Assembly: GCF_030013595.1 (NCBI RefSeq)
Contig: NZ_CP122768.1
Source: Escherichia coli
GTDB taxonomy: Bacteria > Pseudomonadota > Gammaproteobacteria > Enterobacterales > Enterobacteriaceae
Length of the DNA stretch: 64,000 bases
Strand: one strand, 5' to 3'
Part shown: positions 22,731-45,061 of the stretch, piece by piece
Numbering within the stretch: position 1 is the first letter of the stretch
Layout of the letters: every line of letters starts with the position of its first letter
Notes under the pieces: model-generated
Told to the model about the DNA's origin: nothing
What the model saw: the letters and a program-made list of their open reading frames with translations, nothing else
Database searches by the model: none
Program-made: the position numbers and the translations under genes

Positions 22731-22799
22731 TATTTGCTCCTTATGAATGAGTTAGCGGTATAAATGAATAAATATCCTCCGGCATAGCCGGAGGTTTTT

Positions 22800-23520
22800 C
22801 AAATGCGCCTGTAAGGCTCTGTTACCAGCCGCGCCCTAACAGGCGCATACGATCTGACATTTGCATTCAACTTCGTTACTTACGGCCCGTAAACGGGCTG
22901 CCCGGATATGGAATCGATAACTGCTCCCCCATTTTATCCTCTTCAAGCTGGTGCTTTATGTAGTCCTGTATCTTCGCCGTGTTCTTACCCACCGTATCGA
23001 CATAGTACCCTCGGCACCAGAACTCCCTGTTTCTGTATTTGAATTTCAAATCCCCAAACTGCTCGTAAAGCATCAGACTGCTTTTCCCTTTCAGATATCC
23101 CATAAAGCCGGATACGCTCATTTTGGGTGGGATTTCCACAAGCATATGGATATGATCTGCGCAGCACTCTGCTTCCAGAATCCGTACGCTTTTCCACTCA
23201 CACAGCTTTCTCAAAATACTGCCTATCGCCCTACGCTTCTCTCCGTAAAACGCCAGTCTTCGGTATTTCGGCGCAAAAACTATGTGATATTTACAGTTCC
23301 AGCGGGTGTGCGCTAAGCTCTTTTCGTCCCCCATTGGGACCCCCTTTTGATTTCTTGTTTGACACTTGCAGTTGCCAGACCGCAAGGTGTTTTAACAAAT
23401 CAAAAGGGGTTTTAATAACTGGCTCAAAGCTGAAAGCTTTCCGGAACCCCCAGCCTAGCTGGGGGTTTTCTGTGCACAAAAAGCCGCGTCTCCCGGAGAA
23501 GACGCGGCCTGATGGGTGAA
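22800..23520 (-). mobile_element. IS200-like insertion sequence (boundaries approximate)
   Basis: Contains IS200/IS605 Y1 transposase gene; upstream on the minus strand a perfect hairpin gccgcgtcttctccgggagacgcggc followed by a T-run and a second hairpin cccccagctaggctggggg, the characteristic IS200 left-end structures. Confidence 0.75.
22876..23334 (-). CDS. tnpA: IS200/IS605-family Y1 (HUH) transposase TnpA
   Basis: 152 aa from MGDEKSLAHTRWNCKYHIVFAPKYRR with HUH motif ADHIHMLVEIP and catalytic Tyr region; ORF track start 23385 is an extension. Confidence 0.85.
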   Translation of the reverse strand: MGDEKSLAHTRWNCKYHIVFAPKYRRLAFYGEKRRAIGSILRKLCEWKSVRILEAECCADHIHMLVEIPPKMSVSGFMGYLKGKSSLMLYEQFGDLKFKYRNREFWCRGYYVDTVGKNTAKIQDYIKHQLEEDKMGEQLSIPYPGSPFTGRK

Positions 23521-23834: not shown

Positions 23835-26681
23835 TCAGAAAGTCACATTCAGCGTGGCCTGACCGTTATAACCTTCAGCGCTGCTGCCGCTGACGCTGTG
23901 GGCATAACCGGCCTGAACGCCCAGGGTGATATTTTCCCGGACACGGGCTTCCAGTCCGGCCTGCAGGTCCAGTGACGTGCCATTCTGGGATGGTGAGAAC
24001 GTCATGTTACTGCCGGCTGCGGCTGTACCCATGCTCATGTCACCCCGGGAGCTGAAGGTGCGGATAACAGAAGGCTGTACCCACCAGTTCACCGGCAGTT
24101 CACGCACACTGTGTTTTGCACTGTCGCGCAGGGTGTCACGGGATGAGGTGCCTTCACCAAAGGTCATATCGTTGTGGCTGCCCAGACGGAAACCGGCACG
24201 CACATGTTGTGCACTGCCATGCCCGAACTTCACATAACCGGCGTTATCCTGGCCGTCATCCAGGGAAAGTCCCTGCCAGGTATACTGCAGTTGTGGCTCC
24301 AGCATCAGGTTGTCAGTGATACTGAAGGGCAGACCGGTTTCCAGTGAGCCCAGCCAGCCCCAGCCCCGGGCGCGGAAGTCGTTATTGTCCGATGACGCTT
24401 TCATGCTGTGGCGGGTTCCCTGTGCCACAATGTCAGCCCACAGGCCGGAGGACGTGTGTGTCAGATTCAGGTATCCGCCCAGGCTGCCGGCATCATCCCG
24501 GACCGTGCCGGCACGGGAGCCGTCATCATCCTTAACATCAACGGAAGAATGGCCTGCAGCGCCATATACCCCCGTGGTCACAGACATACCGGCAACCTCT
24601 GTTCTCAGCAGGTCACCCTCCAGACGGACGAAGCCATAGCTGCCGCTGCTTTCCGGCGTGGCCCCACGGGCAATACCGCCGTTGTTATCGTGACCGAGAT
24701 GACCGCCCTGAATGCTGAGACGGACGCTGTTATTTTCACCGTTTACACCGGTCTGATGGCTGCGGGAGCCTGCCAGAATCCGGTCATAGTCCATTGCCTG
24801 TGTCAGCATGGAGGCATACAGGGGGACTTCAGCACGATAAGCATTTTCACTGCGCAGGTACCAGTCTTCATCGCTGTCACGGTTCAGGGTGTAGTTAAAG
24901 ACACCGGCCTGAAGCGGGCGACTCAGGGCAAACGCACCTTCTTCTGTGGTGGCACCATTCTGTGCATCCACAACCCGGATACCCTGTCCGGAGGTTGCCA
25001 CCCCGAGGTTACTGTTTCCGACATTTGTGAACGCAAGCCAGGTTTTGCCGGTTGCCTGACCACCATTAATCACCAGCTGGTCAGGGGCATTGCTGCCATC
25101 AAGGCGAACACGCATATTGATGGTGCCACCCTGACCGGTGAGGTTACTGGTGGTCAGTTTATGGAACGTTACCGGGGCGTCGCCTTTTGCAACAGCACGG
25201 CTCAGGACGGCATCCTGTGTCGTCTGATTATCAAAGCGAATCTCCCCTGCGTTAACAATATCGCCGGTACTGACCACATCACCATTCAGTACCATGCTGG
25301 CGCCTTTACTGAGCTGTGTTCTGCCACTCAGACTTCCCCCGGCAGCCAGCATCAGTGTCCCACGATGTCCGACAGTGGTGTTGCTGGCCTGTCCCCCGGC
25401 ATTAACCGTAAAGCTACCGCCATTTTCCAGCAGCAGGCCGCTGGCCTGACCGGATATACCATCAATACTGAACTTACCGCTGGCATTGGTCCCCTCAACA
25501 GTGGCACCACTGTCTGCAATCAGGGCACCACCGGATGTCATGGTGACACCTGTTGCCTTACCACCGGCAGACACTGCCAGGGTACCGCCGTCATCCACCC
25601 GTGTTTTCTGCGCTGAATGGCCCTCCAGTACATCCAGGCGACCGCCGGACTCCAGAACAAGGCCGTCAGCCTTACCGTTTTCCACCGTGAAATTGCCCAG
25701 ACGGTTGCTGCCGGTGACGGTTGCCGCCGTACTGGTGACCAGTGCGCCCCCCTGCTTCAGGGTGACATTCGTGGCTGTACCACCGGCGTTCACCTGCAGC
25801 TTGCCTTTCTGGTTAACGGTGGTGAAATCCGCCAGACCACCTTCCTTGATAATCTGCCAGCCGTCACTGTTTACAACAGTGCCAGACGCCGTACCGCCGT
25901 TGTGCACATACTGGTACCCCCCATTCAGCGTGGTATCCAGTGCGTGACCATGTACAGTCTGGTCGCCGCCGGCATAAACCACAGTGGTATTTACCGTTCC
26001 TTCAGCAGCCACAATCTGACGACCATTTTTATTGATGGTGGTGCGTACGGCATCTCCGTAGACGGTCTGCCCGGTATCACCATTTTCTGCATCCGGTCCC
26101 CCTTCCGCGCCGGTATTCACAACCGTGTCGGTTGCCACTGCGCCGGATTTGACGGCCTGCCAGCCCTTCTCATTAATGACAGTACCCGTTGCAATCCCGC
26201 CTTCATGTACCCACTGCTCACCGCCGTTCAGAGTGGTGTTCACTGCCTGCCCCTGAAGGCTCTGTCCGCCTCCGGCACTGATAACCGTGTCTGAAACGCT
26301 TCCTCCGGCATTCACTCTCTGAAGACCACCACCGGTGACAGTAGTGTTGTTGGCGATACCGCCATTTTGTATCCATTGTCCGCCGGTATTGGCCTCGTTA
26401 TCCGGCCCATACTCCAGACCGGTACTGATGGTCATTCCGTTGGCCGTACCGAAGACAATCTGGTTGTCATGATTTTCCAGTGTTCCGCCGCTCACGGTTT
26501 CTCCCGTCTGTACAACCGTGTCAGCAGCCAGTGCCGGGACTGATGTGACAGCAGCAAGAGACAGCGCAACCGCCACACCGGCGCGTTTTCCCCGTGAGCG
26601 GGCCAGTTCGGAGGTCACCACCAGGGTGCCCGTAATGTGATTCCATACCAGCCTGTAGCTGGTGTTCAGATGTCGTTTCAT
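23835..26681 (-). CDS. flu: Antigen 43 (Flu) self-associating autotransporter adhesin
   Basis: Extended autotransporter signal peptide [45 protein letters not shown]; repetitive beta-helix passenger; beta-barrel ending in aromatic F; 948 aa from this start (ORF track start 26756). Confidence 0.9.
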
Positions 26682-26894
26682 CAGCTTTTCCTTACAGAGG
26701 GTGAATAAAAAAGCCGGTACCCACAAATATGGGTACCGGCAGGTACAAAACAGCATGGTCAGATAAAGTGGTTTTTCCCGGACATAAATGCTTCTCCTCT
26801 CTCATCCGCCAGAGAAGTATCAGTCCGTTGTGTGCAATTCCGTTCTGCATGATGAAGAGATTCAGCTGCCTTTTCGCAGACCATTAACCACTAT

Positions 26895-26938
26895 AAACGA
26901 TCGATGGTAACGATCGATACATGTTTTATCGATCGTTT
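26895..26938 (-). promoter_or_regulatory. agn43 leader with three clustered GATC sites (Dam/OxyR phase-variation switch)
   Basis: GATC at 26899, 26912 and 26931 within about 35 bp, roughly 220-250 bp upstream of the Ag43 start codon. Confidence 0.65.
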
Positions 26939-27052
26939 TATTCTATTAACAGCAAGGCAGTCACGCAAGAGAAAGAGGTGGGTATGAGGTGTTTGTGTCA
27001 TGTTTTCAGTTGGTTAACGCAATGTAATCAGGCATTTCCCCTGGCAGAGTGT

Positions 27053-27922
27053 TCAGAAGAAAATCCAGTTCCATACAGCGCGGGCAACAGAGACCACCGT
27101 GTCACGGACGACACGCAGAACCGTACGAGCCACAGAGGCAATACAGACGCTCTCCGCCGTGTCAAATATCCGGTCCACCGCACCGGTAAACTGTTCACGG
27201 GCCTGCCCCCGGACAGATTCCGTGCACAACTCGTCCTGCAGGCGGGTCATCAGGGGACTGGCGGCATGGTCGGGAAGTGCTGTCATGAGCGCACTGACCA
27301 GCGTATCCAGTTCCCAGCCGGTGCGGGCCGATACGGCCACAACCGGATGTACGGGCCGGAACAGCCGGAATACCGCATCTGTTTTCTCACGAATGTTCTG
27401 TTCCTGTGCGGGAGAAGGCTGAATACCTGCCATATCCCATTCATGGCAGGGCTCCGTTTTGTCGGCCTGCGTCACCACAAACAGCACCTGCTGATGTCCC
27501 CGGTGCAGGATGTGTCGCCAGAAATACTCATCCACAGACAGGGCACGGTCATCGGCTTTAATCAGCCACAGTACCAGGTCAAGTTCAGGCAGAATGTCAC
27601 GGTACAGGGCTTCATACTCTGCATCCCTGTCCCGGCTCTCGCCCACCCCGGGTAGGTCAGTGATAACCATGCTGTGACCATGGCCACTCAGACGGAAGCG
27701 CTGCGCTTCCCGGGTGCCGGCGTGAACATCACTGACCGGGGTGACCTCCCCCTGAAACAGTGCATTACAGAGTGAGGATTTACCGGCCCCGCTTTTCCCC
27801 ATAATGCCAATCACGGGTTCGTGGCTGGTGAGTTTGCGCAGATGTTCCAGGATGTGACGGGAAAGTGAGTAAGGAAGAGAAGAAAGTGGTTTTTCAATTG
27901 CCTCAATGGCATCAGACGGATT
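27053..27922 (-). CDS. YfjP/YkfA/YeeP-family GTPase
   Basis: Walker A GIMGKSGAGKSS, G3 DLPG, G4 TQADK; start set at MNPSDAIEAIEK; ORF track start 27964. Confidence 0.85.
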   Translation of the reverse strand, partial: NPSDAIEAIEKPLSSLPYSLSRHILEHLRKLTSHEPVIGIMGKSGAGKSSLCNALFQGEVTPVSDVHAGTREAQRFRLSGHGHSMVITDLPGVGESRDRDAEYEALYRDILPELDLVLWLIKADDRALSVDEYFWRHILHRGHQQVLFVVTQADKTEPCHEWDMAGIQPSPAQEQNIREKTDAVFRLFRPVHPVVAVSARTGWELDTLVSALMTALPDHAASPLMTRLQDELCTESVRGQAREQFTGAVDRIFDTAESVCIASVARTVLRVVRDTVVSVARAVWNWIFF

Positions 27923-28255
27923 CATACATGTATTCCCGGTGAAAAAAGACAAAACCCCGCGCACCGGAAAGGTGGCGGGGGATTCACGGAGATAATATCT
28001 GTCTGAAATTATTTAGGATGCAGGTATCTTCAGATAATCGCACCCCCAGAATTTTATTCTTAATAGTTGAATAGTGGTATTTGGTTTCCCTGAGAGAATA
28101 TAAAGATGAATCATGCTGTATTGAGTTTGATTCTATTTGTACTGAGACAGGTATCTTCATGATTATAATCAAAAGCCGGGTGGATTGGTCTGGCGCTAAT
28201 TATTTTCTCGAATAAACTCACTAATTATTGTAACCATCCCAAAGGAGATGATTTT

Positions 28256-30400
28256 ATGTATAATTGTGGTGAATCATATTCAGAATACGACATATCATTA
28301 TCTGACGATGAAAACTATAACGATGACTATTATCGTGAGCGCCCGTGCCCGGGAGAAGTTTTCGGCTATGATAATGATGTACCACGGTTTAGTAAGATTG
28401 CACGGTCTTATTTGCTCCACGTGGGTAGCCTTGACTGGACCAAGATAAATCCGGATATCTTTGGCTCCATGATTCAGGCAATTGCCGAAGATGAAGAGCG
28501 CGGAGAGCTGGGTATGCATTACACCAGCGTACCCAACATCTTAAAAGTTTTGAATCCACTATTTCTTGACGACCTGCGTGCACAGCTGGACGAGGCTGGT
28601 GACAATCCACGTATGTTGCTGAACCTGCGCAAACGCATTTCCCACATTCGTGTGTTCGACCCAGCGTGCGGTTCTGGGAACTTTTTGGTTATCGCGTATA
28701 AGGAAATGCGTGCCATTGAGGCCGAAATCAACAAGAGGCGCAGTGAGCCGGATCGTGCCTCGGATATTCCACTTACCAACTTTCGCGGGATTGAACTACG
28801 AGATTTCCCGGCAGAAATCGCCCGCCTTGCGCTTGTTATCGCTGAGTACCAATGTGATGTGCTGTACCGTGGGCTGCGGCTGGCCTTGGCTGAGCTTCTT
28901 CCTTTACGCAACGAAAATTGGATTACTTGTGGCAATGCACTGCGGCTCGACTGGTTAAGAATTTGTCCGCCAACGGGAACCAGTGTGAAATTACATGGTG
29001 ACGACTTGTTTGGATCACCGCTTGATCAGGCAGAGATTGACTTTGAAAATGAAGGAGGAGAGACATATATTTGTGGAAATCCTCCATACAAGGGTAGCCA
29101 AACCCAAACTGATGACCAAAAAAATGATCTAAAAGCCATATTCGAGAAACGCACAACTAATTGGAAGTCATTGGATTATGTTGCAGGTTGGTTTATGAAG
29201 GCTGTCGACTACGGTAGTCAAACTAACTCGTCTGCTGCGTTCGTCTCAACTAATTCCATTTGTCAAGGTAGACAGGTCGAAACCCTTTGGTCGTTGATTT
29301 TTGCAGCCAAGCATGAAATATCCTTTGCTTATACGTCCTTCAAATGGGCAAATCTTGCTAGCCACAATGCGGGAGTGAGTGTCATTGTTGTGGGAATTTC
29401 TAATCATGTTAAGGGCCCCCGGAAAATATTTTCCACAACTGAGGATTTGGGGACCATCATAAAAGAAGTAGACAACATCAATGCGTATCTTGTCGCGGGT
29501 AAAAGCACAATTGTTGCACAGCGAAGTTTTCCTTTATCCGAAGTAAGTGTAATGGATTTTGGTTCAATGGCGAACGATGGTGGTGGCCTTCTTTTTGACA
29601 GTTCAGAATCAAGTCGTGCAGTTAATGATTATGGTGCTGATATTTGTTATTTTCGAAAGGCTTGGGGAGCTAAGGAGTTTATTTCTGGAACTCCTAGAGC
29701 TTGCCTGTGGTTAAATAAAGACAGTGCTAAAAAAGCAATTCTGAACTCTTGGATTTCAGACCGAATTGAGATCACACGTAAGGCCAGAGCAAATAGTCCT
29801 CGGGCAGCGACAAAAAAACTAGCAGATATTGCTTACAGATTTGGTGAAGTGAGGCAAGACGGCAGCGAGCGAATCATTATTGTTCCCAGTGTCAGTTCTG
29901 AACGTAGGGAGTATCTTCCATGTGGTTATCTCGATGTTGGTTCAATCGTTATCGCTCCGAATCTTGCTTTCTATGATTCCCCGCTTTGGAATATGGCGCT
30001 TATTGCTTCTAGGTTGCATTTGGTATGGGTGGCGACAGTCTGCGGGCGTATCAAAACTGACTATCGCTACTCTAATACCCTTGGCTGGAATACTTTCCCT
30101 GTCCCACCACTCACTGAGAAAAACAAGGCCGACCTTACGCGTTGCGCAGAGGATATCCTACTGGCGCGGGAACACCACTTCCCTGCGACTATTGCGGATT
30201 TGTATGATCCCGCGAACATGCCCCCTGACCTGCGTGCTGCCCATGAACGAAACGACGAAGTGCTGGAACGCATCTATATAGGGCGACGATTCAAGAACGA
30301 CACTGAGCGGCTGGAAAAGTTGTTCGACCTCTACACGAAAATGATTGCTTCGACTGCACCGGTCAAAGGTAAGAAGCGCAAAGCAGGAAATAACGAATGA
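28256..30400 (+). CDS. N6-adenine DNA methyltransferase, gamma-class, MmeI/PglX-like, without nuclease domain
   Basis: 714 aa; strong SD aaaggaga 8 nt before ATG; SAM motif I VFDPACGSGNFLV at about aa 135 and catalytic motif IV CGNPPYKG at about aa 277; upstream HYTS helical region; about 430 aa C-terminal presumed target-recognition region. Confidence 0.8.
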   Translation: MYNCGESYSEYDISLSDDENYNDDYYRERPCPGEVFGYDNDVPRFSKIARSYLLHVGSLDWTKINPDIFGSMIQAIAEDEERGELGMHYTSVPNILKVLNPLFLDDLRAQLDEAGDNPRMLLNLRKRISHIRVFDPACGSGNFLVIAYKEMRAIEAEINKRRSEPDRASDIPLTNFRGIELRDFPAEIARLALVIAEYQCDVLYRGLRLALAELLPLRNENWITCGNALRLDWLRICPPTGTSVKLHGDDLFGSPLDQAEIDFENEGGETYICGNPPYKGSQTQTDDQKNDLKAIFEKRTTNWKSLDYVAGWFMKAVDYGSQTNSSAAFVSTNSICQGRQVETLWSLIFAAKHEISFAYTSFKWANLASHNAGVSVIVVGISNHVKGPRKIFSTTEDLGTIIKEVDNINAYLVAGKSTIVAQRSFPLSEVSVMDFGSMANDGGGLLFDSSESSRAVNDYGADICYFRKAWGAKEFISGTPRACLWLNKDSAKKAILNSWISDRIEITRKARANSPRAATKKLADIAYRFGEVRQDGSERIIIVPSVSSERREYLPCGYLDVGSIVIAPNLAFYDSPLWNMALIASRLHLVWVATVCGRIKTDYRYSNTLGWNTFPVPPLTEKNKADLTRCAEDILLAREHHFPATIADLYDPANMPPDLRAAHERNDEVLERIYIGRRFKNDTERLEKLFDLYTKMIASTAPVKGKKRKAGNNE

Positions 30401-32442
30401 ACAATAAAATCAAGAATGTACCTTCCGTTTCCGTTACTTATGCACGTAATGGCGCATCAACCAAAGCTAATGTGCTTGGGATGCGTCCTATGCAGGAGAG
30501 AGCTTATGAAAAGCGCGGCGAGCAGTACTTGCTTATCAAATCACCACCGGCATCAGGTAAAAGCCGCGCACTGATGTTCATAGCACTCGACAAACTCGAA
30601 AACCAAGGGATTAAACAGGCAATCATCGTTGTGCCGGAAAAATCTATCGGCGCGAGTTTCAACGATGAACCGCTATCGCAGTTTGGATTCTGGGCTGATT
30701 GGCATGTCGAACCTAAGTGGAACCTATGCAACGCGCCCGGTAACGACAACGGGGGCAAGGTAAGATCTTTTGGCTCTTTTCTTGAAAGTAGCGACAAGGT
30801 GCTTGTTTGCACACACGCAACCTTTCGCTTCGCGGTCGATGCCTATGGCGTAGAAGCGTTTGACGATCGCCTGATCGCCGTCGATGAATTCCACCATGTG
30901 TCAGCTAACCCGGATAACAAGCTTGGTCAGCATCTGGGGCAGTTCATCGCGCGTGATAAGACACACATCGTTGCCATGACCGGCTCCTACTTCCGTGGTG
31001 ATGCGGAGGCCGTTTTGGCTCCTCAGGATGAGTCCAGGTTCGATACCGTCACCTATACCTACTACGAACAACTCAACGGTTACGAATACCTCAAGCAACT
31101 CGATATCGGCTACTTCTTTTACAGTGGCTCCTACGTCGATGACATCCTTAATGTCCTCGATCCTGACAAAAAGACCATTATCCATATACCCAACGTCAAT
31201 TCGCGCGAGAGCACGAAGGATAAAATCAAGGAAGTGGAGCATATTCTTAGCGAGCTTGGCGATTGGCAAGGTGCGGATCCTGCGACTGGTTTCCAGCTAG
31301 TCAAATGCCTCGATGGCCGAATGTTGCGTATAGCTGATCTGGTGGACCCAACTAGTCAAGGCAAGATTCAGGAAAGCCTTCGTGCTGCAGAAATGAAGAC
31401 AGACCGTGACTATGTAGACATCATTATTGCACTTGGTATGGCGAAGGAAGGTTTTGACTGGATTTGGTGCGAACATGCGCTGACCGTTGGCTACCGTGCC
31501 AGCCTGACTGAGATCGTGCAGATTATCGGTCGCGCTACTCGCGACGCGCCGGGTAAAAACCGCGCAAGGTTTACTAACCTGATCGCCGAGCCGGATGCTG
31601 TTGAGGGGGCTGTCACCGAGGCAGTCAACGATACCTTGAAAGCCATCGCGGCAAGCCTGCTGATGGAGCAAGTATTAGCTCCGCGCTTCGAGTTCAAGCC
31701 TAAGAACCCAGAAAGTGGTCCGGCCCCAGGCTTTGATTATGGTGATGGTGGATATGACCCGGATAGCTGTAATTTTGGTGTTAATGAGCAGACAGGGACG
31801 TATCAAATCGAGATTAAGGGACTTGCCGAGCCCAGGAGCAAAGAGGCGGCACGCATCTGCCAGGAAGATTTAAACGAAGTGATCGCGGCCTTTGTGCAGG
31901 ATAAGCCCGCCATCGAACGAGGCCTGTTCGATGAAGAGCTGATTCCTGAAGAGTTAACTCAGGTTCGTATGGGTAAGATCATCAAAGAAAAGTATCCTGA
32001 GCTTGATGCTGAAGATCAGGAGGCTGTACGTCAGCATGCTATCGCCGCCCTTAACCTCACGCAGCAGGCCAAGCGTCTTGCCACCGACGATAACGATGGG
32101 ACGCTCAATACTGCTCTTATTGACGGAGTGCGTCGCTTTGCGATGGATGTGCGCGATTTAGACATAGACCTTATCGACCGCATCAATCCCTTTGGTGAAG
32201 CCTACGCTATCCTTGCTAAGACGATGAGTGAAGACAGTTTGAAGCAGGTCGCGGCGGCAATCTCGGCCAAGCGTACCTCGATCACACCTGAAGATGCCAA
32301 GGTGATCGCCAAGCGTGCCGCTGAATTCAAACGTGAACGTGGCCGCCTCCCATCGTTAACTTCGCCGGATGCTTGGGAAAAACACCTTGCTGAAGGTGCA
32401 GCTGCGTTTATGCGTTTTAGGGCGGAGGGACGTTATGAATAA
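30397..32442 (+). CDS. SF2 (DEAD/DEAH, ResIII-like) helicase with about 300 aa uncharacterised C-terminal extension
   Basis: 681 aa; ATGA overlap with MTase stop; Walker A SPPASGKSRA, DExH box IAVDEFHHV, motif III MTGSYF, motif VI QIIGRATRD. Confidence 0.8.
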   Translation: MNNKIKNVPSVSVTYARNGASTKANVLGMRPMQERAYEKRGEQYLLIKSPPASGKSRALMFIALDKLENQGIKQAIIVVPEKSIGASFNDEPLSQFGFWADWHVEPKWNLCNAPGNDNGGKVRSFGSFLESSDKVLVCTHATFRFAVDAYGVEAFDDRLIAVDEFHHVSANPDNKLGQHLGQFIARDKTHIVAMTGSYFRGDAEAVLAPQDESRFDTVTYTYYEQLNGYEYLKQLDIGYFFYSGSYVDDILNVLDPDKKTIIHIPNVNSRESTKDKIKEVEHILSELGDWQGADPATGFQLVKCLDGRMLRIADLVDPTSQGKIQESLRAAEMKTDRDYVDIIIALGMAKEGFDWIWCEHALTVGYRASLTEIVQIIGRATRDAPGKNRARFTNLIAEPDAVEGAVTEAVNDTLKAIAASLLMEQVLAPRFEFKPKNPESGPAPGFDYGDGGYDPDSCNFGVNEQTGTYQIEIKGLAEPRSKEAARICQEDLNEVIAAFVQDKPAIERGLFDEELIPEELTQVRMGKIIKEKYPELDAEDQEAVRQHAIAALNLTQQAKRLATDDNDGTLNTALIDGVRRFAMDVRDLDIDLIDRINPFGEAYAILAKTMSEDSLKQVAAAISAKRTSITPEDAKVIAKRAAEFKRERGRLPSLTSPDAWEKHLAEGAAAFMRFRAEGRYE

Positions 32443-33613
32443 TTCTGATTTAGACGATTTGGCAGCAGAACTTGCCGAGTTTGCACCACCTGAGAAGAAA
32501 AAAGGACGTCCAGCCAGCGAGGAACGCATCATAGCCGGTTTTGAAGAGATCCAGCGCTTTACTGAGCAACATGGGCGTGTCCCGCAACATGGCGAAGAGC
32601 GTGATATCTTCGAGCGTCTCTATGCAGTGCGGCTCGACCGCCTACGCAGTCTCCCAGACTGCCGTGCCTTGCTAGAGCCACTGGATCATCAGGGCTTATT
32701 AGCTGGAGGGGGCGATGTAGCGGAGTCTGCGGACGAAATTATCGATATCGATAACTTGGCTGCCGAACTGGCGGATGTTTCCAGCGAGGACGATATCACG
32801 GTCTTGCGTCATGTTCGTGCTAGCACCGAAAAGCGCGTTGTACAAGGAGTTGCGGATCGCAAGCCGTGCGAGGATTTTGATGCGTTCAAACCACTATTTG
32901 AGCAGGTACGCAATGATCTAAGTTCAGGGTTAAGAGTGACCCGACCTTTTGGGCAGTATGCAACGATTGAAGTGGGTCATTGGTTTATCCTGGATGGTCA
33001 AACGGCTTATGTGTCTGAGGAAGGTGAAGAGTTCGATTCTCCACAGGGGAAGAAAGATGCTCGGCTGCGTGTCATTTATTCGAATGGTACAGAAAGCAAC
33101 CTACTTCGGCTGTCATTGGTTCGTGCTTTGTATAAAGACGAAACAGCGCGTCGAATTACCGATCCAGACATGGGGCCTTTATTCAGCGATGCTCTAGAAG
33201 AGAGCGATCTAGAAAGTGGCACTATTTATGTGTTGCGTTCGCTATCTGATAACCCTTATGTAGCTGAACATCGTGATGTCATTCACAAGATTGGAGTGAC
33301 TGGCGGCAAAGTAGAGGCGCGTATTGCCAATGCGGAACACGATTCCACCTATCTGTTAGCGAAAGTCGAGGTGGTAGCTTCATACAAGCTTGCAGGCATC
33401 AACAGCACCCGGATGGAAAACCTGTTTCACAGGTTGTTTGCACCCGCAAGGCTTAACATTACCATTAACGACCGTTTCGGCCATCCAGTGCAGCCCGAGG
33501 AATGGTTTCTCGTTCCGTTATTCGTTATCGATGAGGCTGTTGCACGTATTAAGGATGGTAGCATCATTGGGTATGTTTATGACCCCATGTCTGCGAAACT
33601 GGTGAAGGCATAG
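32435..33613 (+). CDS. Protein with C-terminal T5orf172 / GIY-YIG-superfamily domain
   Basis: 392 aa; start ATG 32435 overlaps the helicase stop by 8 nt and has GGAGGG SD; C-terminus GTIYVLRS...HKIGVTGGKVEARI...ENLFHRLF...EEWFLVP matches the T5orf172/GIY-YIG pattern; N-terminus has two acidic repeats DLDDLAAELAEF and DIDNLAAELADV. Confidence 0.7.
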   Translation: MNNSDLDDLAAELAEFAPPEKKKGRPASEERIIAGFEEIQRFTEQHGRVPQHGEERDIFERLYAVRLDRLRSLPDCRALLEPLDHQGLLAGGGDVAESADEIIDIDNLAAELADVSSEDDITVLRHVRASTEKRVVQGVADRKPCEDFDAFKPLFEQVRNDLSSGLRVTRPFGQYATIEVGHWFILDGQTAYVSEEGEEFDSPQGKKDARLRVIYSNGTESNLLRLSLVRALYKDETARRITDPDMGPLFSDALEESDLESGTIYVLRSLSDNPYVAEHRDVIHKIGVTGGKVEARIANAEHDSTYLLAKVEVVASYKLAGINSTRMENLFHRLFAPARLNITINDRFGHPVQPEEWFLVPLFVIDEAVARIKDGSIIGYVYDPMSAKLVKA

Positions 33614-33650
33614 TGAAGTGACACACTGAATTTGGCCACCTGTTCTGAGG
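33614..33650 (+). repeat. IS3-family (IS911-like) terminal inverted-repeat-like sequence abutting the stop codon of the T5orf172 gene
   Basis: TGAAGTGACACACTGAATTTGGCCACC starts one base after the TAG stop; shares TGAAGTG...GGCCACC termini with the IR at 33838-33864. Confidence 0.5.
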
Positions 33651-33837
33651 TGAGTATATCACCTCAGAACAGCACAGGAATAAAAGATACTGATTTGAAT
33701 GTGCCTATACTTTGTGATGTGAGGATCAATGAATAGTAACCTGATCAAGATATGTTACCGTGGTGAGACTGGTGAAAGTGGTGAAAGTGATCTAAGAACA
33801 TTGATACTTGGTGAGATTCTATATATCTCACTATGAA

Positions 33838-34262
<425 letters not shown>

Positions 34263-34426
34263 TAAGCGTCGTCTGAGTACCGTCTGGTCCCGAATCCAGG
34301 ATCCTGTAACTTAAGCACCCACTTATTTTGCAGGTGGACACCTCATGCGCACCAAAGAACGACTCCCCCGGAAACGCTATTCTCCTGAATTTAAAATGGA
34401 ACTGGTCAGGCTGGCCCTTGAACAAG

Positions 34427-36191
34427 ATATCACGAACGGTGCAATAGTGGTTCTTCCGCAACTTGGGTGGAAGAAAATGGATGAAACTTTCTGGTGAACA
34501 AGGATCTAAGCTGTTTTAAGTTATGGGCAACGCAATGCACTCTCTTAAGACACTTCTACAGTTACCTTGCGGATGGCGATGCAGTCGACAAATTATTAGC
34601 TCTGACGGTATCACCCTCCATCTCCACGGAAAACGCAAAACAGCACAATGTCCTGAATGCTCTAAGCGTAGCGACTCTGTTCATAGTTCTCGTCGGCGCC
34701 GGATACAGCATCTACCCTGCTCCGGGCAGACGCTATGGCTTGTATTTTCCGTCCGCCACTGGTACTGCCGTAACCCGGCTTGTTCACGTAAAATTTTTGC
34801 CGAGTCGCTTGCTCCCTTCGCCGGTTCACACCAGCAGTCTTCACAGGCGTTACAAAATTTACAACGTCAACTGGGATTAATAGCTGGAGGTGAGGCTGGA
34901 AAACGGGCTGCAACGGCAGCGGGTCTCCGTTGCAGTGCTGATACTCTTCTTCGCAGGGTTATCAATACCCCGGAGACGAAACAGTCAGGCGCGCCTCATG
35001 TCGGTATTGATGAGTGGGCGTGGCATCGGGGCCACTGCTGCGGTATGTTAATAGTCAATCTTGATACTCACCGTCCCCTCGTCCTGCTTCCCGGCCGTGA
35101 TCAGCGTACGCTGGCGACCTGGTTCAGAAAATATCCGGAAATACAGGTTGTCTCGCGTGATCGCAGTGGAGTCTATGCGACAGCAGCACGTGAAGGTGCA
35201 CCTCAGGCCAGACAGGTGGCCGATCGATGGCACCTGCTAAAAAATATTGGTGATGAGCCTGAACGAATGATGTACAGACATATACCTCTGATACGTCTTG
35301 TTGCCAGTGAGTTGTCACCAAAGAAATCACCTGAGCCAGAACTGTCTGTGCCTGCAGCATCGCTCCGTCGTCCGGAACGCCTTAAACAGCAAACCCGCAA
35401 AAAACGGCATCAGCGTTGGACAGAGGTTATGGCCCTGCATAACAAGGGATGTAGTTTCAGGGAAATATCCCGTATTACAGGCCTGTCGCGTGTGACAGTC
35501 AGTCGCTGAGTACGTTCAGGAACATTCCCTGAAATGTCAACCCGACCTCCAAAGCGAGGGCTTTTGGACCCATGGAGGGAGTGGTTAAAAGAGCAACGAG
35601 AAAGTGGGAATTATAACGCCAGCCGGATAATGGCGGGAAATGGTGGTCCGGGGGTTTACAGGCAGTGAAACCATTGTCAGGGATACTGTTGCCAAATGGC
35701 GTAAAGGCTGGATCCCACCGGTTACTACTGCCGTCAGACTTCCTTCAGTGTCCCGGGTAAGGCGCTGGTTGATGCCCTGGAGAATAATCAGGGATGAAGA
35801 AAATTATGCTTCCCGATTTATTAGTCTGATGTGTGAAAAAGAACCGGAGCTGAAAATAGCGCAGCAACTGGTACTCGAGTTCTACCGTATTCTGAAAACC
35901 CAAAATAAATCACAGCTTAGCAGCTGGTTCACTCGAGTCCACGAAAGCGGTTCAGCAGAACTTCGGCGCGTGGCTGCGGGGATGGAAGCTGATGCTGCGG
36001 CTATATGTGAGGCAATCAGCAGTCGCTGGAGTAATGGTGTTGTCGAAGGTCATGTAAATCGCCTGAAGATGTTGAAACGCCAGATGTATGGTCGAGCCGG
36101 ATTTGAACTGCTCAGGCAGAGGGTCATGAGTCCACTGGCATGAAAATCTCCACCCAAGTTGCGGAAGAACCACTTTTCATCCGTCGTTGAC
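34427..36191 (+). mobile_element. ISL3-family insertion sequence nested in IS66 tnpA
   Basis: Perfect 23 bp terminal inverted repeats ggttcttccgcaacttgggtgga (34449-34471) and tccacccaagttgcggaagaacc (36149-36171), extending imperfectly outward; removing 34427-36196 restores the IS66 tnpA frame. Confidence 0.75.
34523..36143 (+). pseudogene. ISL3-family transposase, disrupted by an in-frame stop and a frameshift
   Basis: Two ORFs (34523-35509 and 35640-36143); N-terminal zinc-finger-like HLHGKRKTAQCPECS and C-terminal WSNGVVEGHVNRLKMLKRQMYGRAGFELLRQRV typical of ISL3 transposases; TGA at 35507-35509 followed by a frame change. Confidence 0.75.
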
Positions 36192-36498
36192 ACAAGAGGG
36201 CAGTATCGCTGCTCTGGCCCGTCAACATGACGTCAACGATAATCTGCTCTTTAAATGGATAAGGCTCTAGCAACGTGAAGGGCGGGCGGGTCTGTCGACC
36301 CCGAAAAAATGCATCGTCGCTTCCTGCCCTGATACCCGTGCAACTTCAGGCGGAGCCTTCTCTCCCGGCATTCGAACCACCATCCTGTTCACCTACCACT
36401 GCCTGCCACATAAAATGTCGGGGCGGAGAAATAACACTGACCTCTCCCTCAGTTGAGCTTATGAGCACTGTCCTGCGCGAACTGATGCGGGGGTCTGT

Positions 36499-36840
36499 AT
36501 GATAAATCTTCCCGCAGGCACAAAAATCTGGCTGGTTGCCGGTATCACCGATATGCGCAACGGCTTCAATGGTCTCGCCGCAAAGGTGCAGACAGCGTTG
36601 AAAGATGACCCGATGTCCGGCCACGTCTTCATCTTCCGGGGCCGCAGCGGCAGTCAGGTCAAACTGCTGTGGTCCACCGGCGACGGACTGTGCCTGCTGA
36701 CCAAAAGGCTGGAGCGTGGCCGCTTCGCCTGGCCGTCGACCCGCGATGGCAAAGTGTTCCTGACGCCGGCGCAGCTGGCGATGCTGATGGAAGGTATCGA
36801 CTGGCGACAGCCAAAGCGGTTACTGACGTCCCTGACATGT
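36499..36840 (+). CDS. tnpB: IS66-family TnpB (orf2)
   Basis: MINLPAGTKIWLVAGITDMRNGFNGLAAKVQTALKDDPMSGHVFIFRGRSGSQVKLLW...GIDWRQPKR matches IS66 orf2; ATGA overlap with preceding tnpA frame; 3' end merges into the truncation junction. Confidence 0.7.
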
Positions 36841-37684
36841 TGTAGCCCAGGTCTTCTTCGTTGATAAAGTTCACATCCAGAGGATGGATACTTCCTGTAG
36901 CCCGTAATATCGTCGGTTCAATATCCTGCACATTCATCGGGATCACCGATGCAAGAAAAGCCCATTGATCAGAATAAGGCTGGAAATTAATATCAACAAA
37001 AACGCTTCCCCCCGATGCACGCGGTCTTTTTTGCAGAGGTAACGCGATAAGATTACCAAATCCTCCTTTTGGCATAGTATCCTGATTAGGAAATAATCGG
37101 TCATAAGAACTCAATTGCAGCTGTCGGGTCCGGCTGCACGTATAGCTAATAATAGCAGTCCCCAGACGGCGAGCTTCGCGGGCCGAAACTCGTGAAGCAA
37201 AAAATATCCAGACATGCGCTCCCTGACGTGAGCGGGATATTTCCAGCGCAGCAGGTACACTCAGCTCATCACAGGCTCGCATGAACGCGGATGCATCCTT
37301 CTGCCATTCAGCTTTATCAAAATCAACAGCCAGAAAATAACAGGAATCATCTTCCAGCAACGGATATAACCCGGCAGTATGCGTGCCTGCCAGATGCTGG
37401 TAGATGACAAGATCAGATACAGGGAGTAACTGACGGTGCGTACAGTCCCCGCATTTTATCCGGGGTTTACCGCATATTCTCGCCTGCCATTCGTTAGCGC
37501 AGGCAGGAGAGTACCCTGATTTGCCGCTGGTTTTACTTTCCCAACGAAGGGCCCATATATCATCACGCCCACGAAACAACCGACGAAATAATGCAACCTT
37601 CTCGTCGGTGGATAATACGGAAACGCGCTGCACAGGGCTCGGCGGTTTACGTCGCCATTCCAAGTAATGAGACCAGACGGGCAT
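36841..37684 (-). pseudogene. Archaeo-eukaryotic primase (AEP / Prim-Pol)-like gene, 3'-truncated by the IS66 remnant
   Basis: N-terminal LFRRLFRGRDDIWALRWE, DxD motif FLAVDFDK, GAHVWIFF and GGFGNLIALP motifs; the last third of the listed 341 aa ORF is antisense IS66 tnpB sequence. Confidence 0.6.
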
Positions 37685-37887
37685 TTTCTGCCCTCAATGC
37701 AGCTAATTCATCGCTGTCAGATTTATGAACCATATTCGTTACCTGTATCCGATCCACTGAGGCACCACGGCAGAAATTCGGGTCCCCTACACTGATGACA
37801 AAGCGCCCCGCCCTCTTCTGCCTATTAACTCAAGCACCTCCCAACAACTTACAGAAACTTAATTCTAATACCTAATACAGCTGTAAT

Positions 37888-38451
37888 TCAGTTGTGTCGT
37901 GGTCGGCCCCGGTTACTTTTTTCGGGAAGCCTGCTACGGCCCAGAATAATACCGTGTTCTTTCTGATCCTGTTTAGCCAGGTAGCTGAGGGCGTAACGTA
38001 AGTCGTCTACCGCGGACTTATCACTATAGTGAATCACGTGATCGATACGCACCGGGTATTTATCTTTAGCCCGGCACAGATGAAAATAACCATCCCCTTC
38101 CGTGATCCGCCTCCAGATATCTCCCAGTTGCCTGGATATCTGATAAGAGTTCTTGTGACGTTGTCCATCCAGGTAGCCGATAAAATGAATATGAAGCCCT
38201 TTGTCTGGTGTATATTCCATAACCCAGTAATATCCTGCCAACATCGTTTGGTTTTCGCTAAGTAAACGGTATATTTCCATACACATACTGTGCTTACAGG
38301 AATGCCCGAAACTGGGCGTGTATTTCCTGTAGGCAAAATCAATTCTGAAAGGTAACAGTTTAGAAAAACGTTGAAACAGACCTTCCATGTGTTCATTCAC
38401 ATCTTTCAGAATCGCGAAATTCATTTCGTAATTGGGATTGGCATTATACAT
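37888..38451 (-). CDS. YagK/YfjJ-family (inovirus Gp2-like) protein
   Basis: 187 aa; recalled family resemblance and conserved position next to DUF3987/alpA in CP4-like islands. Confidence 0.65.
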   Translation of the reverse strand: MYNANPNYEMNFAILKDVNEHMEGLFQRFSKLLPFRIDFAYRKYTPSFGHSCKHSMCMEIYRLLSENQTMLAGYYWVMEYTPDKGLHIHFIGYLDGQRHKNSYQISRQLGDIWRRITEGDGYFHLCRAKDKYPVRIDHVIHYSDKSAVDDLRYALSYLAKQDQKEHGIILGRSRLPEKSNRGRPRHN

Positions 38452-38581
38452 TTTATAGTCCTTACTTTATAAAATTCACAGGAAGAGGGAATTACGTAAA
38501 TACTGAGAGTACATAAACGCCGTACCACGGCATTAATAAACGAGGTAACCAGCAGTACAGACAACCTGATAAAACTGTTTG

Positions 38582-44975: not shown

Positions 44976-45031
44976 TTGATTTAAATGGTGCCGATAATAG
45001 GAGTCGAACCTACGACCTTCGCATTACGAAT
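44976..45031 (-). repeat. Island-junction direct repeat overlapping the 3' part of thrW
   Basis: 56 bp match to 16635-16690 with 2 mismatches. Confidence 0.85.
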
Positions 45032-45061
45032 GCGCTGCTCTACCAACTGAGCTATATCGGC
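44986..45061 (-). tRNA. thrW: tRNA-Thr (anticodon CGT)
   Basis: Reverse complement reads GCCGATATAGCTCAGTTGGTAGAGCAGCGCATTCGTAATGCGAAGGTCGTAGGTTCGACTCCTATTATCGGCACCA; 76 nt with CCA end, located next to proA. Confidence 0.95.

Follow-up and report, generated by a model that had tools for sequence, protein, structure and literature searches.

What is the group of three tightly coupled genes at 28256-33613 in the 64,000-nt stretch of Escherichia coli contig NZ_CP122768.1 (assembly GCF_030013595.1) that we call the window, meaning the whole stretch? The original prediction described these genes as an intact and undescribed restriction-modification (R-M)-like defence system, composed of a nuclease-less MmeI/PglX-like methyltransferase (MTase), a superfamily 2 (SF2) helicase and a separate T5orf172/GIY-YIG protein. 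Our analysis points to a different answer. The locus is probably a module of the YeeA(DnmA)-YeeB-YeeC type (YeeABC) whose first gene has been truncated in this E. coli lineage, with restriction lost and an orphan methyltransferase possibly kept.

The three open reading frames (ORFs) lie on the plus strand exactly where they had been predicted, together with their overlaps and Shine-Dalgarno (SD) sequences. ORF1 (28256-30400, 714 aa) and ORF2 (30397-32442, 681 aa) share an ATGA overlap at 30397-30400, and ORF2 and ORF3 share a ATGAATAA overlap at 32435-32442. ORF3 (32435-33613) encodes 392 aa from the ATG used in the RefSeq annotation; the longest ORF, from 32369, encodes 414 aa. There are SD-like sequences 7 nt upstream of the ATG at 28256 (AAGGAG), 9 nt upstream of the ATG at 30397 (AGGAA) and 5 nt upstream of the ATG at 32435 (GGAGGG), and no frameshifts or stops were seen in the three window ORFs. 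Pfam supports the domains originally assigned. ORF1 matches MmeI_Mtase (7.7e-116), MmeI_TRD (4.7e-73; TRD, target recognition domain) and MmeI_C (8e-18), and the same scan found no MmeI_N and no MmeI_hel in the window copy. The gamma-class N6-adenine MTase motifs FDPACGSGNF and NPPY are both present. ORF2 matches DEAD/ResIII and is a helicase without a nuclease domain, and ORF3 has a T5orf172/MUG113 match at its C-terminus.

Is ORF1 a complete MTase gene? We used positions 27900-33800 as a megablast query against 5,426 complete E. coli genomes and found the locus, at ~99.5-100% identity, in 67 of them. In all 67 the match is split in two and spans 8.2 kb, compared with 5.9 kb in the window. 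The MTase gene in these genomes is 2787 nt long and encodes a 928-aa protein (WP_001385107.1), which according to Pfam adds MmeI_N (2.2e-33) and MmeI_hel (7.7e-25) ahead of the domains present in the window. Comparison by blastn with the intact island L001 shows that window positions 24001-28375 correspond to L001 2102-6476 and that positions 28372-34261 correspond to L001 8768-14664. Relative to L001, therefore, 2291 bp are absent from the window, and there is a 4-nt TAAT microhomology at the junction (28372-28375), which was placed from the blastn breakpoints and the sequences on both sides. The lost DNA contained the 3' end of a small acidic ORF, IS66-family insertion sequence (IS) remnants, the region upstream of the MTase gene and MTase codons 1-254. 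The 714-aa ORF is thus 40 codons of the small ORF (28256-28375, plus strand, identical to L001 6357-6476), which now provide the fusion protein with its leader, SD and ATG, joined in frame to YeeA-like residues 255-928 (28376-30400, plus strand; the 3' three-quarters of a yeeA/dnmA-like gene by Pfam and PADLOC). The leader has 11 D/E against 2 K/R in its 40 residues. What remains of the yeeA/dnmA-like gene encodes the end of the helical spacer, the MTase domain, the TRD and a C-terminal domain that is helical. The closest complete island, that of strain 2022H047, is 99.8% identical and has an intact MTase gene, and the 674 residues retained in the window are identical to the full-length protein of that strain.

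The deletion junction is found in none of the 5,426 complete genomes (0/5426), and the exact 714-aa product is encoded on 17-19 draft E. coli contigs. An assembly artefact was considered as the cause and was ruled out by the presence of the exact fusion protein on these 17-19 independent contigs. The deletion is real and clonal. The MTase allele from which the deleted form derives is carried by 68 of the 5,426 complete genomes, 66 with an undisrupted 2787-nt gene and two with IS insertions; counting all alleles, the family MTase is found in 90 of the 5,426, and ~21 of these alleles share the 5' half only. Because E. coli loci that are 99.5-100% identical encode 928 aa with MmeI_N and MmeI_hel, the missing N-terminus is a lineage-specific lesion and not the architecture of the system. 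How much of the protein has been lost can be read from the published domain limits of MmeI, which are nuclease 1-155, helical spacer 156-300, MTase 301-620, TRD 621-825 and C-terminal domain 826-919 (PMC4833311). In an alignment to MmeI the retained part begins at about residue 267, so nothing is left of the N-domain and only about a quarter of the spacer remains.

In intact islands the small acidic ORF itself (WP_000282126.1, L001:6357-6539) encodes 60 aa with 18 D/E and 3 K/R, has a strong SD and adjoins the GTPase gene, and many complete E. coli genomes contain DNA that matches the 28256-28375 stretch. That it might be a DNA mimic or an anti-restriction protein is pure speculation.

To which family does the intact form belong? 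Morgan et al. (2009; PMC2731913) separated the MmeI homologues into two sets, a true MmeI family with the PD-ExK motif, which they placed in the amino-terminal domain, and a second set without it. Members of the second set deviate from MmeI over the first ~100 residues and 'invariably' have as neighbours a DEAD-family helicase (YeeB-like) and a protein with a GIY-YIG motif (YeeC-like); the MmeI-family genes proper have no consistent flanking genes (PMC2731913). The mechanism proposed in that study is that the MmeI-like subunit provides specificity and modification and that its N-domain contacts the helicase and the nuclease, and two second-set members showed no endonuclease activity when alone (PMC2731913). 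In Bacillus subtilis the dnmA-yeeB-yeeC cluster methylates GACGAG (PMC7261158, PMC9973331), and inactivation of yeeAB sensitizes Vibrio crassostreae 7F1_18 to one phage group (bioRxiv 10.1101/2021.05.05.442762).

The full-length E. coli allele fits the second set. It matches MmeI (PDB 5HR4) in a phmmer search at 4e-132, with homology over residues ~88-928. The alignment begins at E. coli residue 88 (MmeI 108) when the single sequence is used and at position 83 (MmeI 103) when a profile of 69 N-domains is used. The first ~87 residues, where MmeI holds its PD-ExK motif with catalytic residues that we take to be D70, E80 and K82, do not align to MmeI, and no D...ExK pattern is conserved among the invariant columns 1-82 of the family N-domain. 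This matches the 2009 description of the YeeA set. The MmeI-like MTase-TRD-C core, the helicase gene directly 3' of it and the T5orf172 gene 3' of the helicase are all present in the window; an N-terminal MmeI_N-type domain without PD-ExK is present in the 928-aa allele and absent from the window copy. The assignment of the E. coli helicase and T5orf172 protein to YeeB and YeeC follows the published descriptions of the B. subtilis and Vibrio clusters. Because codons 1-254 have been replaced by 40 unrelated codons, the window copy is a degraded member of the YeeA/DnmA-YeeB-YeeC type module. The yeeB-like gene (30397-32442, plus strand) encodes an SF2 DEAD/DEAH helicase with a C-terminal extension of ~250 aa, and the yeeC-like gene (32435-33613, plus strand) encodes a protein with a helical N-region, a small beta-barrel in the middle and a C-terminal T5orf172/GIY-YIG-like domain.

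That the three genes form one module, as had been proposed, is borne out by a survey of helicase relatives in one genome per GTDB species, in which 600 stretches were examined. Relatives are found in at least 552 species. The best 80 share 74-90% aa identity and span Proteobacteria, Verrucomicrobia, Cyanobacteria, Deinococcota and other metagenome-assembled genomes. For the analysis of synteny these 80 other-species loci were combined with one from Klebsiella and one from a Nitrobacter plasmid, giving 82 loci. Wherever the sequence extends far enough, there is a YeeA-like gene upstream of the helicase and a YeeC-like gene directly downstream of it; the YeeC-like gene is directly 3' in 80 of the 82, and the other two stored sequences run out inside the helicase gene or just where it stops. 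By tblastn the N-domain was detected in 73 loci, and in each of the 73 it is contiguous with the MTase. Of the nine loci with no N-domain match, eight end too early upstream and one (L061) has lost nearly all of the MTase gene. Intact family MTases are 909-951 aa long in 68 of 68 other-species loci. The same gene order is kept in a relative (L091) with a YeeC only 35% identical, where a protein of 914 aa with the domains MmeI_N to MmeI_C is followed by a helicase of 645 aa and a T5orf172 protein of 390 aa. Full-length YeeC-like proteins form 581 clusters at 50% identity (E <= 1e-30).

Conservation is not evenly spread over the YeeA subunit. Between the E. coli and Klebsiella proteins, identity is 97% in the N-domain, 80% in the spacer, 68% in the MTase, 40% in the TRD and 88% in the C-terminal domain. 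Judged from these alignments, specificity changes while the N and C modules stay constant, and the constancy of the two modules fits contacts with conserved partners. In the helicase, motifs I (PPASGKS), II (DEFHH), III (TGS) and VI (QIIGRATR) are invariant, and the GIY-YIG-like residues are invariant in the YeeC family. Mean column identity of the helicase is 80%, with conservation over the whole length including the C-terminal ~250 residues. Conservation this high points to strong constraint, to a recent and wide horizontal spread, or to both.

The space between the MTase and helicase genes varies. Same-strand variable cargo of 0.4-3.2 kb lies there in 46 of 79 other-species loci (for example L008:3913-4977, L030:3971-4978 and L028:3274-4986, among loci L004-L083), and the other 33 are tight like the window. 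Some of the cargo genes match the PADLOC defence candidates PDC-S02 (PD-DExK), PDC-S05 and HEC-05/PDC-M55C. The arrangement resembles that of type I hsd operons, which also enclose accessory genes. On plasmid 2 of Nitrobacter hamburgensis (L003 1-14171) a cyclic oligonucleotide-based antiphage signalling system (CBASS) operon with cyclase, AAA ATPase and SAVED genes lies upstream of the trio, and an AAA ATPase gene and mcrC (McrBC-like) lie downstream. This plasmid is a defence-island context for the YeeABC family.

Do the defence databases offer another home for the trio? The PADLOC model REase_MTase_IIG (PDLC03598) covers the intact MTase end to end at 925 bits and covers only profile positions 260-910 of 912 in window ORF1. 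The helicase has no meaningful family in PADLOC, NCBIfam or PHROGs, with weak matches to PbeA, dnd_restrict_1 and a generic phage helicase, and phmmer found no match for it among PDB sequences. The T5orf172 protein matches nothing in PADLOC, NCBIfam or PHROGs. A structure model of YeeC (predicted local distance difference test score 77, predicted template modelling score 0.40) consists of a helical N-region, a small beta-barrel and, at the C-terminus, an alpha/beta domain, and Foldseek found nothing significant for it in the PDB.

The PADLOC and NCBIfam scans agree with the earlier view that the trio fits none of the type I, type III, BREX (bacteriophage exclusion) and DISARM (defence island system associated with R-M) systems. 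Type I membership was rejected since the TRD is fused to the MTase and there is no HsdS, no HsdR family match and no significant NCBIfam or PADLOC type I model; type III membership was rejected on the same scans. BREX PglX models score 21-29 bits against ORF1, compared with cut-offs of 400-900, and DISARM DrmMI scores 75 bits; these scores are far below the curated cut-offs, as with 29 bits where 500 would be needed, and there are no PglZ, BrxC/L or DrmA/B/C genes in the neighbourhood, so neither system was accepted. ARMADA was also considered, and its "YeeA-related" ArmB is a component of another system, one of four genes. A literature search found no newer named system that combines an MmeI-like MTase, a helicase and a T5orf172 protein.

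The three open, overlapping ORFs, each with an SD, and the lack of a significant PADLOC or NCBIfam family for the helicase and T5orf172 proteins are what favours the reading of the locus as an intact, undescribed three-gene system. Against this, ORF1 is a chimera made by the deletion and its 254 N-terminal codons have been lost, not dispensed with by design; the allele is undisrupted in 66 of 68 complete E. coli genomes that carry it and the 68 other-species MTases are all of full size; the intact MTase is matched over its whole length by a PADLOC family; and the trio and the same mechanism were published in 2009, with later work in B. subtilis and V. crassostreae. The literature thus places all three genes in a described system, and we find it very hard to credit that the trio is either intact or new. 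The restriction logic that had been proposed for it, of a modification subunit, a helicase motor and a separate GIY-YIG nuclease, stands, and is the one published for the family.

We read the YeeABC module as a relative of the MmeI (type IIL/IIG) R-M enzymes that is coupled to a helicase and resembles type I systems. In the intact form, a YeeA-like subunit of ~920 aa would recognize an asymmetric site through its TRD and methylate adenine. Its N-domain, a homologue of the MmeI nuclease without PD-ExK, would link YeeA with its two partners, the SF2 helicase/translocase and the GIY-YIG/T5orf172 nuclease, and these two would cut unmethylated DNA. E. coli strains with a disrupted MTase gene bear on this. 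In strain EC15 (L093 1072-5818) there is an IS100 at about nt 470 of the MTase gene, with both downstream ORFs, helicase and T5orf172, intact. In strain DSM 103246 (L094 1501-5486) there is an ISKpn26 in the 3' part of the MTase gene; the stretch examined stops inside the helicase gene, whose annotation names the same helicase protein. Together with the window deletion, these make three independent disruptions. Loss of the MTase with the downstream ORFs kept would be lethal under type II logic and harmless under type I-like logic, and we infer from this that restriction probably depends on YeeA, as in type I systems. The viable dnmA deletion in B. subtilis, which has no growth defect (PMC7261158), agrees with this.

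The window copy arose from the intact form by the 2291-bp deletion and the in-frame fusion to the start of the small acidic ORF, with a substitution in the nuclease candidate coming later in a sub-lineage. The window helicase is identical to that of strain 2022H047, and the T5orf172 protein differs from that of the same strain at one position, R324S (codon 324 at 33404-33406, plus strand). Column 324 is Arg in 75 of the 76 aligned family members, the window being the sole exception with Ser. The residue lies four positions before the invariant E328, and the invariant H332 is also in the GIY-YIG-like domain. The exact S324 protein is found on 3 contigs, and all five of the other deletion-allele contigs that were examined have R324, which places the deletion first and R324S later, in the 3-contig sub-lineage. 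The substitution would fit relaxed selection. Taken together, the loss of the N-domain and this substitution make it most likely that the window copy no longer restricts DNA.

Could the truncated system still defend its host? For this to be so, the N-domain would have to be dispensable, and the MTase-TRD-C core would by itself have to recruit the helicase and nuclease or license them, perhaps by way of the C-domain. The C-terminal domain is indeed 87-88% conserved across TRD alleles, the fusion is in frame with a strong SD, and the allele persists, next to intact helicase and YeeC ORFs, on 17-19 contigs that come from several assemblies. However, no part of YeeA is as conserved as the N-domain, which is present in every locus that has kept an intact MTase gene. 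In addition, an in-frame join is expected by chance one time in three, and the nuclease candidate of the window also carries R324S. We regard continued defence as rather improbable.

The opposite possibility is that the locus is an inert remnant which neither methylates nor restricts, with the fusion unexpressed or, as most of the spacer that packs on the MTase is gone, misfolded. The point at which the retained part starts, ~MmeI 267, is inside the 156-300 helical spacer, and the island is full of IS debris. The deletion (L001 6477-8767) took with it the MTase gene's own upstream region, and upstream of the small acidic ORF there is a promoter-like sequence, CTGAGA-16-TATAAT (28142-28169, plus strand), which matches 10 of 12 consensus positions. 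The number of promoter-like sites in the region is not above that expected from shuffled sequence in a consensus scan, which makes this weak evidence; 28142-28169 is nevertheless the sole remaining candidate promoter for the fused operon. Yet every MTase motif and the TRD have been kept, with no difference from those of a functional-looking allele, no frameshift or stop has accumulated in any of the three ORFs, and the gamma-class MTase-TRD core of M.TaqI works with neither N-domain nor spacer (PMC4833311). A wholly inert locus is in our judgement unlikely. Since all the catalytic motifs have been kept and translation signals borrowed, the MTase-TRD core may instead persist as an orphan N6-adenine methyltransferase.

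Several points weigh against our reading of the locus as a truncated YeeABC copy that has lost restriction. The E. coli locus is known from sequence alone, and we infer the effect of R324S from conservation alone. The coupling role of the N-domain is a hypothesis of 2009 and not a result. To our knowledge, restriction in vitro has never been demonstrated for any YeeABC system. In B. subtilis the cluster did not restrict transformation and gave no defence against three phages (PMC7261158, PMC9973331). Finally, the reading frame of the fusion has stayed open on at least 17 contigs, neither the helicase nor YeeC has been shortened, and residual function is therefore possible.

As a system the locus has no novelty; the kind was described in 2009 and is still poorly characterized, and the window copy is decayed. 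Defence tools call intact loci "RM type IIG" from the MTase alone, without models for the two partners, and the trio therefore looks new to a reader without tools. The family is widely spread and its mechanism remains unproven 17 years after it was proposed; a natural N-domain deletion allele beside near-isogenic intact alleles is test material for the coupling role of the N-domain. At the level of populations, the three MTase disruptions support the view that cutting depends on the specificity subunit in a type I-like manner. We also consider, as a tentative and on balance doubtful proposal, that YeeABC is a distinct and still unclassified class of ATP-dependent R-M, in which a dead MmeI nuclease domain has been repurposed as a docking or signalling module for an SF2 translocase and a GIY-YIG/T5orf172 nuclease. 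The window allele and that of 2022H047 would then be a separation-of-function pair: with an island 99.8% identical, they would form a natural pair in which methylation is kept and restriction lost, usable for work on the mechanism.

The trio is situated, as first described, in a CP4-like island between a GTPase-family gene and a YagK/YfjJ gene, and annotation of homologous islands confirms this. The GTPase-family (YfjP/YeeP-like) gene (27053-27964, minus strand; identified from the ORF list and the annotation of the L001/L084 homologue) flanks the system and lies outside it. The island contains cbtA/cbeA, yeeT, radC, an antirestriction gene, DUF932, Ag43, the GTPase, YagK/YfjJ and YfjI. There is a tRNA-Thr at 44986-45061 of the window, and an Rfam scan of 27000-35000 gave no match. 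Relative to strain 2022H047 the window has a 705-bp insertion at 22773-23477, with an ORF (22876-23385, minus strand) for a transposase that looks IS200/IS605-type TnpA from its translation alone. On the 3' side of the trio, regions homologous to ~34500-38500 are annotated with an ISL3 transposase, IS66 TnpB, a YagK/YfjJ gene and a frameshifted pseudogene for a 'TOTE conflict system archaeo-eukaryotic primase domain'; this part is more decayed conflict-system material in the CP4-like island.

How does the trio compare with known systems? BREX PglX and DISARM DrmMI are distant homologues of the MTase core, and the partner genes of neither system are found here. The intact E. coli protein has the same five-domain Pfam layout as the MmeI family (type IIL/IIG). 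It differs in that the PD-ExK region does not align in the intact allele, and the whole domain is absent from the window copy; and whereas MmeI-family genes have no conserved neighbours, the MTase gene of the trio is always followed by the helicase and GIY-YIG-like genes. With the type I and type ISP systems (EcoKI/EcoR124I; LlaGI/LlaBIII) the trio shares an ATP-dependent SF2 motor, a gamma-class N6-methyladenine MTase and a TRD, a probable dependence of restriction on the modification/specificity subunit and, in the 46 of 79 YeeABC loci with cargo, variable defence genes inside the operon, as in hsd operons. In contrast to these systems, where a PD-ExK or Mrr domain is fused to the motor, the nuclease of the trio is a separate GIY-YIG/T5orf172 protein, and unlike type I the trio has its TRD fused to the MTase and lacks HsdS and HsdR. 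The closest likeness is to the YeeABC cluster itself, with which the window has in common the gene order, the domain content (an MmeI-like MTase-TRD without PD-ExK, an SF2 helicase and a T5orf172/GIY-YIG-like protein) and the same proposed type I-like logic, in which restriction would depend on the MTase subunit. The helicase here is 681 aa long; the YeeB and YeeC of B. subtilis are without C-terminal stretches relative to those of Vibrio (mBio paper). What sets the window copy apart from the cluster is the loss of 254 N-terminal residues of YeeA and the R324S substitution in YeeC.

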